DNA of 64,000 nt, from the NCBI RefSeq assembly GCF_003815035.1, contig NZ_RKRK01000005.1:1-64000 (forward strand). Reading direction: 5' to 3'. Positions within the stretch are counted from its first letter, which is position 1; each line of letters opens with the position of its first letter. Positions 50,301 through 62,300 of the stretch are shown here, one piece after another. The position numbers were made by a program. This stretch comes from Abyssicoccus albus. GTDB lineage: Bacteria > Bacillota > Bacilli > Staphylococcales > Abyssicoccaceae.

Positions 50301-53300
50301 ATCGTTGGGCAATCATATGGGGGATATTTATCTAGGGCAATCATAAAACGAATGCACTCACAAGTTACAAATGCTGGATTTATTTGTCCTGTAATCATTG
50401 CTGATCATTCGATGAGAGAACTCCCAAAAAAGCAAGTGTTAGAGCGTTCTGAGAGTGTGTACGATGACACAGTCAATGAAGAAGATAAGCAACAATTCGA
50501 ATCAGAAGGGGTAATCATTACACCAAGAACTTTAAGACGGGTTGCAAAGGATATATGGCCCGGTTATAGATTAAGAAGAAAAGCACATATCCAAGAAATT
50601 CAACAAAATTATATCTTTTCACAACCGCTAAATGATTTTATCTTTGAAGGTGTATCTTTATTTTTACTCGGTAAAGAAGACCATATCGTTGGATATCAAG
50701 ATGCAATCAATATCGCAGATCAATTTGTCTATGCTAGTTACGCGATTCTACATCGAGCAGGACACAACTTACAAATCGAACAAGTACAAGCCTTTAACAT
50801 GCACATTCAACAATGGTTTAATCAGATTATCAAAGAGCAAAAATTATAACGCTATCAAACTTATAAATTGATAGCGTGCTCCTTTTTACGAACCATATAG
50901 TACACTTCATTTACACCTAATTTCTTTAAATAATTCTCTTTAAGTTCTACATCATAACCAATGTCATCATACAAATGACTATCTGAGCTTAATGTAATCT
51001 TATTTTTTATAAAATATTCCATATCTTTTTGACTAGGACAAGATTGCTGAACTGGATACCTATATTTCAATCCTGAATTCCATTCGATAATTGTATCTGT
51101 GTCATTTAACGCTAGACTAATCTGTTTAAAATATTTATCCTTTATCATATTTGAAGGTTCGAACTGAAAAACTTTTAAATTATCTACATGCGCTATAATA
51201 TCAACAATATTTGCTCGTATCATTTCAAGAATCGTTTCAAAGTGTGTAGTGTAAGCTGCATCCAAATCTAGCTGATTAAAATAATGTTTCAATGTTGGAT
51301 TATCAAATCCAAATCCTTTATAAAAGTGAACGGAACCAATTGTATAATCTAAATCTAAACACTCGATGGTCTGTTTTAAAAAGTCAGCTTCTCCACTAAA
51401 AAAATCAACTTCTAAACCATACAATAATTCAATACCATGGTCTTTCCATTTTTGCTTTTCAGACTGTATAAATTCTTTAAACTGATCAAATGAAGTGACA
51501 CAAACTCTATCTAACCATTCCGATTGTATGTCGCTTAATGCTTTATCATAATCATAAACATCATCTACAATATGCTTTTGGAAATAGTGTTTAAATTCCT
51601 TAAATCGATACATGTGATCGACAATTCCTACTACTTTTAAGTTTTTCTCGACTGCTTTTTCTAAGTAAAGATCAAACCATGTTTTATCATAACCATTATT
51701 CTCTATAATATTTTTAAATTCATTAAGTTTAATATTAACATCTAACGTTTTTGAACTATATTTCTTTTCAAGAAAATAATGAAATATTTTTTTTAGATAC
51801 TCATTATTATATGGTCCTTCATCAAGATGTATATGTATATCTATCGTCATTTCTTTATCTCCTTACACAATACCAGTTTAGTTGATCATTTGTCTCTATT
51901 ATGCGATTCATATTTGTGATCACATCATCAAATTCATTTAAGTCACTTATTTTGTAATAACATTCTTTATTTAGTTTGCTTTCATCTGTTAGTAAAATAT
52001 TTCGATTAGATCGTGTCATCGCTTGTCTTGAGCACACTGTTTCGTCTAAATCAAAATCAAGTACCTCATATCGGTTAAAAGAACCACAGGAAATGAACGA
52101 AATGTCAAACTTAAAATTTTGTATTGCCTCAATAGTCATTGCACCCTTAACAGAATGCTGTTCTGGATTAGTAATGCCAGGTAACATAACAACTTGTCCG
52201 GATATTCTTTCTTCTTCAACCGCTTTATTAAATTGCATACATGAGCTGATTGAACTTGTCACAACCGTAAGGTTTGAAATATCATGTAAATATTCTGATA
52301 AATAATATGTTGTAGTACCTACATCAACAAAAATGATTTGATTGTTAGAAATGAATTTTGAAGCTCTTTTTGCAATTAGTTTTTTTTCTTTTTTACACTT
52401 ATTTATTTTTTTGTTAAAAACTAATTCTTGATTCGTTTTTTGATATTTTGTTGCTCCACCATGAGTACGTAGTAATTTTTGATCATTTTCTAAAGTTGTT
52501 AAATCTTTTCTAATTGTTTCTTTCGATACATTTAAAATACTTGCCAATTCATTAACAGTGACTCTTCCTTTTAACTCTAATCGGTCCAAAATAAATTTAA
52601 ATCGTTCTTCCTGAGTAAACATTCTCTATTTCCTTTCTATTATTCCGTATTAAAATGAAGCTTAGAGTATTCTTTTGAAGTCATTCTGCGATTCATAAGC
52701 AAATACCTAATAAATTCATCAATAATTAAAACAATCCATATTGCATAAATCCCCCCATCTAATGCTATACCAAAGATATAGCTCAATGGTATTGTTAACA
52801 ACCACGTTACGATTACATTTACTGAAACTGGATAATAAACATCGCCATATACATTCAAAACATCAACAAGCAAGACATTCATCGCTCTTAAAGGCTCAAG
52901 TGCAATAGATAGGAATAATAATACGAAAATAATATTAAATACAACATGTTCAGTATTAATGATTTTCATGAGTAATATCGAGCCTATAATTACAATAAAA
53001 TGTATCCCAATAGTTTGATAGAATATTACTTTTTTAGAGGTATTGAATATTTTTTTAAATATTTTTATATGATGTTTTGCTATGAATTTACCAAAATAAA
53101 TTTGAGCAGCTATTGCAAATGCTACACTAAATGTAAATGTTATAGAATTAAAAGTTTGAACCATTAATTTCCCACTAATAACAGATACTCCGTACAAACT
53201 AATCATTGACGTTAATACAAACTGAGAGATATTATACGAAATATTTTCTCCAGCACTGGGTAGCCCCAATTTAACAATCATTTTACTTCTAGTGATTAAT

Positions 53301-59300: not shown

Positions 59301-62300
59301 CTAATAAGTCATTTACAGTGTAATCACCATCACTATGAACAGTATGACTATGTAATTCTACTTTTAAGTTTTGTTGTTGACGAATAAATCCAATCGAAAC
59401 TTTTATAAAAACATTAATGAACTTCGACACAATTTCATGGCAATTTAAAACGATAGAGATTGTTTGATTAAATCGAGTGACCGTATTGTAACCTAACGAT
59501 GACTCTTTAGTAGATATTAAGATTTGATCTTTATTTCTTTTTGAATGTCGACAACCAATATAATCATTTCCGTTTAATATACTTACAGTAAGTAGGTTGT
59601 CTAAAGAACAAGGTACTTCAATATTGTTAATTTTACATGTACTGAAAAAATTAAAGATTTCATCTTTATTTGTTACTTTTGAAGGTGTATAGCCCCAATC
59701 AATCTTTATATATTCAATAGCTTGTCTATTAAATGATTGAATATCTAATTCTTCTAAAATATTTTGTTTCCGATCCATCCAGCTTAATGTAAATTCTTTA
59801 TCTAAAATAACTTGTTCATCCATTAATTAATCCTCCTGCCAGAATTGCGGTCAAAGAATTTAATTTTACTAAACGGCACAAAGAATGTGAGTTTTTGATT
59901 ATAGTTGATATTAGTTTCATTGCTCACTTTCACTATAATATTGTGCGTAAAATATTTTAGGTGAACAAGTTTTTCAGAGCCTACCATTTCTATTAACTCA
60001 ATTGGTAATTCTTTAAATTGAATACTATCTTGAAGATGTTCATCGATTATAATATCTTCAGGACGAAATCCGACTACCACATCATTTTTAAGAGTTTCGC
60101 TTGGAGTATTGTTACTTTCCATTAATTGCATAATGATATCTTTTGATGTACTAATTTGATTCATAGGAGGGCTACCCATAAATGTCGCGACAAATAAATT
60201 TGCTGGCTCTTTATAGATTTCCTCTGGCGTTCCTATCTGTTGAACTATTCCATCTTTCATCACGACTATACGATCGGCCATTGTCATTGCTTCCGTTTGA
60301 TCATGTGTTACATAAACTGTTGTTGCTTTCATCTTTCTATGAAGTTTGATGATTTCAGAACGCATTTGAATTCTTAATTTAGCGTCTAAATTAGATAACG
60401 GCTCATCCATTAAATAAACTTTCGCATCTCGCACTATCGCTCTACCTAAAGCAACCCTTTGTTTTTGTCCCCCTGATAATTCTTTCGGCTTTCTTTCTAA
60501 TAAATGTTCAATCTCGAGTATATTTGCTGAGTCATGTACTTTCTTTTGTATTTCATTTTTCTTCATCTTTCTCATTTTTAACCCGAAAGCCATATTATTA
60601 TAAACTGTCATATGTGGGTATAGAGCATAATTTTGAAATACCATTGCTATATCTCTATCTTTAGGATGCATATTATTTACTTTCTTTTGATCTATTTCAA
60701 TAGATCCTTTAGTGATATCTTCTAACCCCGCAATCATTCTAAGCGTAGTGGATTTACCACAACCAGATGGTCCAACAAAAACTATAAACTCATTTTCTTC
60801 AATTAATAAATTGAAATTCTTCACGGCATAATCATTTCCATTGTAAGATTTATGTATATTCTCGAGTTTAAGCATATACCCACACCCCTTTTCTAATATA
60901 TTTAAATAGTAACACCACCATTTTAATTATTAATTAATATATGTTTAAAATTATGTAAAAAAAATGACTTTTGTTTTTTTCAAAACAAAAGTCAAACAAA
61001 AATTTTCTATTTATTTCTAATCGCTTCTAACATCACTTCAGTCATTTTCTCTAAATCATATTTTGGATTGAATTTCCACTGTCTTCTCGCTTCACTATCA
61101 TCAATATGATTCGGCCAACTATTCGCAATACCTTGACGTACCGGGTCAACATCATAATTCATTTCAAAATCAGGTATATGCTTCTTCACTTCAGCAGCAA
61201 TTTGTTCAGGCTCAAAACTCATTCCTGTAATATTAAATGCGTTACGGGTTTCTAATTGATCGCCATCTGCTTCCATTAAATCGATAATCGCTTGAACTGC
61301 ATCATCCATATACATCATGTCCATATATGTTCCTTTGTCAATATACGATGTATATTGACCTTCTCTAATCGCTTGGAAGTATATATCTACAGCGTAATCC
61401 GTCGTACCTCCGCCTGGTTCTTTCACATGTGAAATTAATCCTGGGAATCTAACTCCACGTGTATCAACTCCGAATTTGTGATAATAATAATCACACAATA
61501 ATTCACCTGATACTTTATTCACACCATACATCGTTGTTGGTCTTTGAATCGTCACTTGTGGCGTATCATCTTTCGGCGTCGTTGGGCCAAACGCTCCAAT
61601 ACTACTTGGTGTAAAGAATTGTAAATCATATTCTCGTGCAACTTCTAATGCATTTACAAGTCCTCCCATATTTAAGTTCCACGCGATGAGAGGTTTTGAT
61701 TCTGCGACTGCACTTAACAGTGCCGCCATATGCATAATCGTATCTGGTTTAAATGATTCGACAAGTTCTTTCATTCGATCGATATTCATGACATCTAATA
61801 CTTCGAATGGCTTTCCTTTAAAGATTTCCATATCTGGCTCTCTAATATCTGTTGGAAGTACATTCTCATCACCGTATACTTCTCTTAACTTCTGTGTTAA
61901 TTCTGTACCAATTTGTCCTAACGCGCCAGTAATTATAATTCTTTTCATAATTCACCTACACTCCTTTAACATCAGTTACGATAGTACACCTAGCTCCTTT
62001 CCTACTTTTTCGTAAACTTTCAATGCTTCGTCTAACATTTCTTTCGTATGTGCCGCTGTCGGCATATTACGTACACGACCTGTTCCTTTGGGTACTGTTG
62101 GGAAGACAATGGACTTCGCATATACGCCTTCTTCCATTAGACGTTTAGAGAATTGTTGAGTTGTTTTCTCATCACCGATAATACATGGCGTAATTGGTGT
62201 TTCTGAATGACCGATATCAAATCCTAATGATTTTAATCCTTCTTTTAAGTAATCACCATTTTCCCATAATTTATCATGCAATTCTGTTGAATCCATTAAC

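Follow-up and report, generated by a model that had tools for sequence, protein, structure and literature searches.

GPI anchors, phosphate-rich sugar stalks, fasten proteins to the cells of animals, fungi and plants, and to our knowledge all eukaryotes make them. In the literature outside supplementary regulon tables, we found no description of a bacterial pathway for the uptake or dismantling of the GPI glycan. Among the closest described enzymes is yeast Dcr2p (with Ted1p/PGAP5), which is reported, on genetic grounds, to take ethanolamine phosphate (EtNP) off GPI Man2 (PMC11584325). It is a Golgi enzyme that matures the cell's own GPI anchors, whereas the Abyssicoccus albus enzyme considered here, alike over the full length of the Dcr2-type metallophosphoesterase domain, is a soluble 280-aa protein encoded behind an importer and predicted to be catabolic.

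The LplABCD/YtcQ-type ('putative aldouronate') importers, AlgQ, a glycosaminoglycan SBP (solute-binding protein), FusA and Blon_2347 are like the present system in fold, two permeases and MsmX-type ATPase. However, identities are 16–20%, a lyase, glucuronidase or fructosidase is lacking, and the importer is paired with phosphoesterases and a MATE transporter. The UgpBAECQ system and B. subtilis GlpQ/PhoD scavenging are alike in Pho-box-like repeats, weak ahead of the present block itself, in a predicted import followed by a phosphodiesterase and in a UgpC-scoring ATPase. The block differs in permeases far under the UgpA/UgpE cut-offs, an SBP of the oligosaccharide class, an exporter and a ligand predicted to come from the glycan of eukaryotic glycolipids.

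Bacteroides alpha-mannan loci share GH92, GH125 and phosphatases with the Bacteroidota Dcr2 loci described below. GPI cores are named as an alpha-1,4-mannoside source, and a role for the alpha-1,4-mannosidase BT3965 is hinted at, in PMC5930347; the hint there concerns one enzyme in a locus of unassigned function and comes with no pathway, importer or phosphate-only variant. GlvA (a GH4 6-phospho-alpha-glucosidase) and AtOGE cleave by redox-elimination, according to PMC10628242. Enzymes like these occur, by motif or best match, in sister loci but are absent from the window, the whole 64,000-nt stretch of Abyssicoccus albus DNA analysed. We found no literature report of GlcN-alpha-inositol as a substrate of GlvA or AtOGE.

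We propose, with belief and doubt evenly balanced, that the block is a phosphate-starvation operon that would scavenge phosphate from the eukaryotic GPI glycan. The proposal is built on genomic context and a single homologue from eukaryotes, about 26% identical. Nine minus-strand ORFs, all intact, occupy 60875 to 50861, spaced by -17 to +59 nt. The preliminary description had reported nine genes for an ABC importer, three phosphoesterases, a MATE transporter and a DeoR regulator; the ORFs are real and closely spaced, their Pfam and NCBIfam matches confirm these families, and, as it had also stated, no glycosidase lies within 50861..60875.

60965..60994, minus strand: likely terminator of the upstream gene, a stem-loop then a T run; may overlap an operator
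60942..60959, minus strand: degenerate Pho-box-like repeat TTTACA-N6-TAAACA, 10/12 at 11-nt period
59823..60875, minus strand: ABC ATPase, UgpC/MsmX type, 350 aa (NF008653, 487 bits, above cut-off)
58447..59823, minus strand: CehA/McbA-type PHP metallohydrolase, 458 aa (NF038032, 193 bits, cut-off 80)
57473..58450, minus strand: ABC permease 1, 325 aa (PF00528, BPD_transp_1)
55761..57461, minus strand: lipoprotein SBP, 566 aa (PF01547, SBP_bac_1); start at an ATG with a ribosome site, longest ORF from 57479
54808..55701, minus strand: ABC permease 2, 297 aa (PF00528, BPD_transp_1); longest ORF from 55725
53958..54800, minus strand: Dcr2-type calcineurin-like phosphoesterase (Metallophos), 280 aa (DCR2 homology, intact metal motifs)
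52640..53974, minus strand: MATE-family transporter, 444 aa (PF01554, MatE)
51855..52622, minus strand: DeoR-family regulator, 255 aa (PF00455 and PF08220)
50861..51850, minus strand: HisJ/PRK06740-like PHP phosphomonoesterase, 329 aa (NF005235, 310 bits, below the 442 cut-off)

The terminator candidate is the sole such site in 49800-61200; shuffles give 3.4, and it is not significant alone. A promoter scan gave 82 sites against 71 in shuffles, hence no signal, and the window holds no tRNA genes or Rfam families.

An SBP_bac_1 lipoprotein, two permeases and an MsmX/UgpC ATPase in a single operon define an oligosaccharide (CUT1) importer. The predicted SBP structure (mean pLDDT 87.8) has AlgQ, a glycosaminoglycan SBP, FusA and Blon_2347 as its nearest folds at a TM of about 0.6, so by its model the protein is of the large oligosaccharide-binding class. 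Fold matches yield the class only, and a substrate assignment from structure was dropped. AlgQ1 had been called the only PDB match; there are in fact 10 matching sequences at E<=1, including AlgQ2 and glycosaminoglycan-related SBPs, and all PDB and fold matches, FusA and Blon_2347 among them, stand at 16–20% identity. An AlgQ/AlgM/AlgS alginate importer was rejected at just 17–18% SBP identity and with no lyase among the annotated neighbours. The Ugp glycerol-3-phosphate system was likewise rejected: the permeases score 64 bits against a cut-off of 335 (UgpA) and 55 against 297 (UgpE), and the NCBIfam profiles match no UgpB-type SBP in the block.

The Dcr2-type label, given earlier, is borne out by comparison with other fungal proteins named DCR2 than S. 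cerevisiae Dcr2p itself. The enzyme is 26% identical to a fungal DCR2 (BLASTP E 6e-19), its profile finds fungal DCR2s at E 1.7e-50 and 2.7e-49, and hhalign aligns the two at 100% over 290 columns, the full domain. Across 23 sequences the calcineurin-like metal motifs DxH, GD, GNHD, H and GHDH are intact, and D12, H14, D47, N81, H82, H176, H225 and H227 are invariant. By analogy, the enzyme is predicted to release EtNP from mannose.

The CehA-type PHP carries HxH, DH, E and DxH motifs, whose roles in this protein we presume, and scores weakly (E 1.4e-6) against a model for 1,2-cyclic phosphodiesterases; its predicted, putative substrate is inositol (cyclic) phosphate. The HisJ-like PHP is closest to family PRK06740, with histidinol phosphatase 2yxo as its sole PDB match. 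The biosynthetic HisJ was rejected for it, at 310 against 442 bits and with no HisD found in the 100%-complete genome, where all 14 control genes were detected. The aminoethyl-phosphate group of EtNP matches that of histidinol phosphate, so the protein is predicted to be an EtNP phosphatase. The exporter passes Pfam MatE and appears MATE-like without a named subfamily; a NorM-type multidrug MATE was rejected (TIGR00797, 101 against 147 bits, no NorM match).

Relatives were compared as the best 80 of 155 loci of the block's SBP family, to which the Bacillota locus counts below refer. A MATE without sugar catabolism, as in Abyssicoccus albus, occurs in 44/80, catabolic genes without MATE in 29/80, both together in 0/80 and neither in 7/80, some of them incomplete. 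One of the 44, L019, may merely have an unrelated upstream MATE. The MATE proteins of sister loci are 25–36% identical to that of the block, DeoR is present in 33/44 MATE-form and 1/29 catabolic loci, and a CehA-type homologue in 49/80. Dcr2 is found in 61/80 and, by a distance rule, directly 3' of the second permease in 33/80, so the earlier counts of 15 in 16 loci for Dcr2 after the permease and for MATE do not generalise.

Three Bacillaceae catabolic loci nest in a starred clade among MATE-form loci with SBPs 80–85% identical, and the two forms therefore likely share one ligand. The block's SBP is itself 62–64% identical to SBPs from loci with GH38 and iol genes. Since MATE stands in for the catabolic genes, export of the remainder fits, but independent switches are few: starred branches give 4 independent pairs, of which 1.9 agree and 0 disagree (median p 0.5). 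The MATE is thus predicted to export the dephosphorylated glycan, with putative cargo and direction.

The mutual exclusion of MATE and catabolic genes lacks significance when independent pairs are counted, and the 7 loci with neither MATE nor catabolic genes also leave room for the MATE to be a passenger or to export ethanolamine or a toxic by-product, or for the gain to be other than phosphate. We give this little probability: catabolic loci would free ethanolamine too, yet MATE occurs in 0/29 of them, and EutB was not found in the genome, so ethanolamine is an unlikely gain.

Pho boxes were scored as TT(A/T/C)ACA repeats at 11-nt period, after the consensus in PMC11870197. Scores of at least 11/12 lie upstream of 21/44 MATE-form loci, compared with 7 on the reverse strand, a mean of 1.2 (max 5) in 100 shuffles and 8/176 other upstream regions. 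Because Pho boxes precede many of these loci, the importer and phosphoesterases appear to be a phosphate supply. The Abyssicoccus albus pstS and alkaline phosphatase boxes score 12 and 11; the block's own 10/12 repeat is weak alone, being equalled by 19% of 821 upstream regions. By the relatives' matrix it ranks 39/821, with pstS at 8 and alkaline phosphatase at 14. Six staphylococcal loci score just 9–10 or are unscorable, boxes also occur in 5/25 catabolic loci, and the contrast between forms is confounded by AT content. No HisJ, PRK06740 or NT5C monoesterase is present in 18/44 MATE-form loci.

The catabolic form offers clues to the ligand. Its 29 loci contain a kinase in 23, M17 aminopeptidase in 16, AKR in 15, an eliminase-like TIM barrel in 14, GH38 alpha-mannosidase in 12, GDPD in 12, GH4 in 9 and GH123 in 4. 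Two or more iol genes are present in 11/29; IolG, IolD and MMSDH/IolA score above NCBIfam cut-offs. Just 4/29 loci combine GH38 with iol genes, and 20/29 have at least one of the two within 10-kb flanks. L045 also has GH125, and L021 has PI-PLC immediately upstream. The GH38s of the two catabolic lineages are only 22–33% identical, which argues for separate recruitment of mannosidases.

All 8 of the 8 recovered GH4 ORFs have ICDTP, where alpha-specific GlvA has ICDMP and beta enzymes LCNVP, a motif reading taken from PDB alignments only; overall they are slightly nearer beta-specific enzymes (E 3e-67 against 3e-49). The TIM barrel has the O-glycoside beta-eliminase AtOGE (8bvk) as best PDB match. 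GH4 or TIM barrel is present in 21/29 loci, both in 2, and they are predicted to cut GlcN-alpha-inositol. By their families, the catabolic-form enzymes match, bond for bond, peptide-EtNP-Man3-(GalNAc)-GlcN-inositol-phosphate, the GPI glycan, whose core and GalNAc branch follow PMC7125958. A GH29 fucosidase (2 loci) and MgtC (9 loci) go unexplained by this scheme.

Other mannosyl-inositol-phosphate head groups, namely fungal MIPC/M(IP)2C, actinobacterial phosphatidylinositol mannosides (PIMs) and plant GIPC, are plentiful in soil and on skin, and their known structures equally explain the alpha-mannosidases, iol genes, GDPD, PI-PLC and phosphoesterases. They would need no aminopeptidase, EtNP-type Dcr2, beta-GalNAcase (GH123 in 4/29; GH20 in 9/23 Bacteroidota groups) or redox-elimination alpha-glycosidase route, and glucuronidase-type GH4 or uronate genes do not recur, with uxaC near only L068. 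That one or several of them, possibly plus GPI, are the ligand seems unlikely, though worth serious weight.

Bacteroidota provide a parallel, counted over 78 metagenome loci in 23 lineage groups. In this phylum, Dcr2 domains occur in fusions with PI-PLC-X, GDPD or EEP. Nearby are alpha-mannosidase in 13/23 groups, GH63-like enzymes in 12, alkaline phosphatase in 10, GH20 and SusC in 9 each, EEP in 8 and PI-PLC in 2; GH92 and GH125 also occur, the GH92s being closest to BT3130/BT3965-clade structures. Ten of the 23 groups have no mannosidase, and the largest (19 loci) has none of these glycan enzymes. By gene content, this second phylum agrees with the GPI-glycan reading.

Alpha-mannosidases, hexosaminidases and multiple phosphoesterases would also suit fragments of mannan or N-glycan that carry phosphate (as Man-phosphate diesters, Man-6-P, or phosphoethanolamine or phosphocholine decoration), with iol genes as bystanders. 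An EEP-family enzyme strips such groups from GlcNAc, as PMC10704324 reports, and EEP genes occur in 3/29 catabolic loci besides the 8 Bacteroidota groups. This is improbable in our judgement. PI-PLC fusions and neighbours would go unexplained, and the iol genes make poor bystanders: they occur within 10 kb in 12/29 catabolic loci, their distribution over the SBP tree takes 7 changes, and their place is downstream in Bacillaceae but upstream in Paenibacillaceae.

The import-dephosphorylate-export part of the preliminary description holds as what we infer from the Pho boxes and from the lack of matching glycosidases, IolB, EutB and HisD; its teichoic-acid substrate is not supported, since the genes nearby, those for mannosidases, inositol use and PI-PLC, have no role in it. 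GDPD in 20/80 loci speaks for teichoic acid, as does a kinase with GH4 that could cut glucosyl-glycerol. Bacteroidota, in which we know of no teichoic acid, keep the Dcr2 enzyme in mannosidase loci, and the 70 largest neighbour clusters include no recurrent glycerol, ribitol or GlcNAc catabolic cluster. Teichoic acid is a phosphate store under PhoPR control (PMC6232261), but the known route works through GlpQ and PhoD, and the block has neither GDPD nor PhoD. Import of its fragments is thus very improbable.

In the GPI scheme, host or neighbour phospholipases and proteases would free EtNP-Man3(EtNP)-GlcN-inositol-phosphate, and Abyssicoccus albus would depend on others for this; a PI-PLC search of its own genome was blank, as was its control. 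The ABC system would import the lipid-free glycan, the Dcr2 enzyme would cut EtNP from mannose in the cytoplasm like yeast Dcr2p, the HisJ-like PHP would split EtNP and the CehA-type PHP would handle the inositol (cyclic) phosphate. The MATE would expel amine-bearing Man3-GlcN-inositol, undigestible for this bacterium: single-family tblastn queries, as distinct from a full CAZy scan, found no GH4, GH38, GH123, GH29, GH92, GH125, GH63, GH20, IolB or IolE in the genome. Sister loci with glycosidases and iol genes would consume the whole glycan without need of a MATE.

More broadly, and with confidence somewhat short of even, there may be dedicated bacterial GPI catabolism in two builds around a shared Dcr2, with ABC, GH38, GH123, GH4 or eliminase and iol in Bacillota and SusCD, GH92, GH125, GH20 and GH63 in Bacteroidota. 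The block would be its phosphate-mining, core-exporting form. If true, this would give functions to bacterial Dcr2-type enzymes, the 'putative aldouronate' SBP family and an uncharacterised gut Bacteroidota locus, and a MATE would export a glycan, not a drug. A soluble EtNP phosphodiesterase and an alpha-glucosaminide-cleaving GH4/eliminase would be new activities useful for GPI analysis. Some staphylococci, Anaerococcus and Aerococcaceae would draw phosphate from this glycan of the host, and Paenibacillus would find in it a pool of phosphorus in soil.

A restriction to skin and mucosa, as first suggested, is not supported, because 25/44 MATE-form loci (and 58/80 of all) belong to Paenibacillaceae, Bacillaceae or Caryophanaceae. 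The reported rarity stands: 6/401 class genomes and 7/199 order genomes, both including Abyssicoccus albus, have the locus. The low GC of the block is confirmed as only mildly low, at 30.7%: 10-kb windows average 34.1% (sd 2.3), and 6.9% of 1714 such windows reach its level. With ordinary codon use besides, recent transfer by composition was rejected, although the patchy staphylococcal presence at differing sites points to gain or loss all the same. The region 49500-62000 has short, imperfect repeats, none of them placed at the block ends. The stretch is present in 23 listed runs, a contig-level record without strand or level.

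The nine ORFs of the block run head to tail, and their intergenic gaps of −17 to +59 nt make a single operon likely.

60875 to 50861, minus strand, in this order:
ATPase
CehA/McbA-type PHP protein
permease
solute-binding protein (SBP)
permease
metallophosphoesterase (Dcr2-type)
MATE
DeoR
PRK06740-like PHP protein

None of the metallophosphoesterase's metal ligands varies across 23 homologues, and both PHP proteins keep the presumed functional motifs HxH, DH, E and DxH. The preliminary description of the block as low in GC stands as to its lying below the genome mean, only mildly so (30.7% versus 34.1 ± 2.3%, with 6.9% of 1714 windows equally low). 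Elsewhere in the window, positions 1001-4000 have 44-46% GC against about 34% outside, without a tRNA or Rfam match.

A profile search with the Dcr2-type enzyme retrieves fungal proteins that bear the name DCR2 (E about 1e-50), and they align over the full domain. Yeast Dcr2p removes ethanolamine phosphate (EtNP) from GPI Man2, as the introduction of one paper relates secondhand (PMC11584325). The longer homologues are fusions with PI-PLC-X, GDPD, EEP or GH29. By one account, few phosphodiesterases that take phosphoethanolamine- or phosphocholine-type groups off sugars have been described, and Dcr2 goes unmentioned in its passages on them (PMC10704324).

The block is real, conserved and likely novel, and we give about an even chance to the mechanism that we infer for it, the scavenging of phosphate from a GPI glycan. 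The ABC system would import a GPI-type glycan, the phosphoesterases would remove its phosphates and the sugar remainder would leave through MATE, undigested by this bacterium.

The genome is 1.8 Mb with a marker completeness of 100% and contains pstS, phoU and alkaline phosphatase. Neither HisD nor EutB was found in it, and the queries for GH4, GH38, GH123, GH29, IolB, IolE, GH92, GH125, GH63 and GH20 gave no match. Since matching glycosidase, iol and eut genes were not found, phosphate is likely the gain from this form and MATE likely the predicted exit for the dephosphorylated remainder. We retain, as inferred, the import, dephosphorylation and export proposed before.

A genome scan confirmed 155 relatives of the SBP, and the counts for the loci of this family come from the best 80 of these. 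Scored by a tblastn matrix, 44 of the 80 loci have MATE and no sugar-catabolic gene (one of them, L019, may be counted here only through an unrelated MATE), 29 are catabolic without MATE, seven are neither and none is both; the groups are defined by the very genes counted, so only the non-overlap counts as a result. Phosphoesterases occur in 75 of the 80 loci, Dcr2 in 61. DeoR tracks the MATE form (33/44 versus 1/29) and LacI the catabolic form (26/29 versus 0/44).

On a quick IQ-TREE phylogeny of the SBPs, the label changes five times, three of them forced by starred branches. Only four independent pairs of the two forms lie on starred branches, so the exclusion between MATE and catabolism is without statistical support. 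Three catabolic loci (L001, L002 and L005) nest among MATE loci, with SBPs 80-85% identical, and their SBPs share 62-64% identity with that of the window. One locus of each form is apparently held by each of four strains (L020/L040, L028/L043, L022/L047 and L050/L062).

Some loci have further genes. At L028:5225-6964 and in 14 other MATE-form loci, of Paenibacillaceae type, a LamG-domain metallophosphoesterase is paired with an NT5C-type phosphatase, and together with DeoR they lie upstream of the importer. An MgtC/SapB gene (L044:7819-8565 and eight other loci) is confined to non-MATE loci. The CehA-type PHP lies beside a small unannotated gene at L068, L075, L079 and L080, and in three of these also by a chromate-transporter-like gene pair. 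The first permease at L091:9932-10891 is split into two ORFs in that genome, perhaps as a broken or mis-assembled copy.

The 29 catabolic loci carry a PfkB kinase (23), M17 aminopeptidase (16), AKR (15, with a TIM-barrel protein alongside in 14), GH38 (12), GDPD (12), GH4 (9) and GH123 (4), and 12 have at least one iol gene, 11 at least two. L045 combines GH38, GH125, GDPD, CehA, kinase, GH4, AKR, TIM barrel, Dcr2 and M17; this Cohnella nanjingensis locus (L045:1-19517) is the fullest catabolic version, in which the TIM barrel is eliminase-like and MgtC, ABC and LacI are also present. A PI-PLC lies immediately upstream at L021. The GH38 proteins of Bacillaceae and Paenibacillaceae catabolic loci are only 22-33% identical and were thus recruited separately.

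The best PDB match of the TIM barrel is AtOGE, described as a 3-keto-glycoside beta-eliminase (PMC10628242). The GH4 motif is ICDTP in 8/8 recovered ORFs, in likeness to ICDMP in the alpha-specific GlvA, although the whole-sequence scores lean to beta enzymes, against the motif. GH4 or the eliminase-like TIM barrel would provide a redox-elimination route in 21 of the 29 loci, and two have both. A free-amine glucosaminide would withstand ordinary hydrolases and suit elimination chemistry.

The GPI core is given as EtNP-6Man-a2-Man-a6-(EtNP)Man-a4-GlcN-a6-inositol-P with an amide link to protein and a frequent beta-GalNAc branch (PMC7125958). Every bond of it has a candidate enzyme among the aminopeptidase, Dcr2, mannosidases, GH123, GH4 or eliminase, phosphatases and iol products. 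Other mannosyl-inositol-phosphate head groups, for which we allow perhaps one chance in four, account for much of this gene content but leave over the aminopeptidase, the GalNAcase and the elimination route. Phosphomannan or N-glycan fragments are improbable ligands, leaving iol and PI-PLC unaccounted for. The teichoic-acid fragments suggested earlier are very improbable, as no neighbour genes fit them and the known route is described as GlpQ and PhoD (PMC6232261).

Searches aimed at bacterial GPI or GIPC catabolism, or at such a locus, found no description in the paper listings and openings of abstracts covered, and an earlier one may exist. The architecture is that of a glycan utilisation locus, an already known kind; the predicted substrate and the phosphate-only, export-coupled variant would be new.

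The SBP is rare, as first claimed, occurring in 6/401 class genomes and 7/199 order genomes, this one counted in both. It is not a skin or mucosal speciality as had been proposed, since the best 80 of 155 loci include 42 from Paenibacillaceae, 15 from Bacillaceae and one from Caryophanaceae. The other 22 belong to families that are, judging by their genera, mostly host-associated.

Pho boxes were scored by the B. subtilis consensus as reported (PMC11870197), with a two-box threshold of at least 11 of 12. This is reached upstream of 21/44 MATE-form loci, versus 7 on the reverse strand, 1.2 on average over 100 shuffles, and 8/176 other upstream regions. Each locus is represented by its highest-scoring region out of several, a choice that is allowed for in the shuffles but not in the control with other regions. 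The catabolic loci reach it in 5/25 scored versus 1/78 other regions. In this genome the score is 12 for pstS and 11 for alkaline phosphatase. For the window's own site (60942-60959, ahead of the ATPase gene) it is 10, and a matrix from relatives places this site 39th of 821, so as a regulatory box it is suggestive only; staphylococcal promoters of such loci score similarly weakly.

Given no HisD in the genome, the simplest role for the PRK06740-like PHP is that of a predicted ethanolamine-phosphate phosphatase. It lies among his-like genes, by sequence, in 2 of 20 regions examined, and in roughly half of the 20 the DeoR and PRK06740-like PHP pair adjoins a different ABC system. This second system has an SBP close to PDB 5t1p, with a weak resemblance to an aminoethylphosphonate binder, and Pho-box-like repeats occur in 7/10 regions upstream of that SBP; the system's substrate is perhaps an ethanolamine-phosphate ester. 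Its loci (L205, L206, L208-L210, L212-L214, L217 and L218) also have a gene that is phosphodiesterase-like by sequence.

A query from the PI-PLC fusion alignment retrieved at least 78 metagenome loci of Bacteroidota-type Dcr2-PA14 in 23 lineage groups at 85% identity, some on short contigs and with the phylum assigned from SusC/D neighbours and atlas labels. Among the matches listed, an alpha-mannosidase (GH92, GH125 or GH38) is near in 13/23 groups (33/78 loci), and the groups also have GH63-like (12), alkaline phosphatase (10), GH20 (9), SusC (9), EEP (8) and PI-PLC (2) genes; the largest group has no glycan enzymes nearby among these matches. Still, a second phylum appears to set Dcr2 beside different families that would cut the same bonds as the Bacillota ones. 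A GPI role has already been hinted at for one GH92 (PMC5930347). A gut Bacteroidota-type locus of SusC/D, GH92-PA14, EEP, alkaline phosphatase, GH63-like, GH125, GH20 and Dcr2-PA14 recurs (L143:2-11371, L128:1-11371 and L160:1-13218) and is itself a candidate for a locus of GPI-glycan utilisation.
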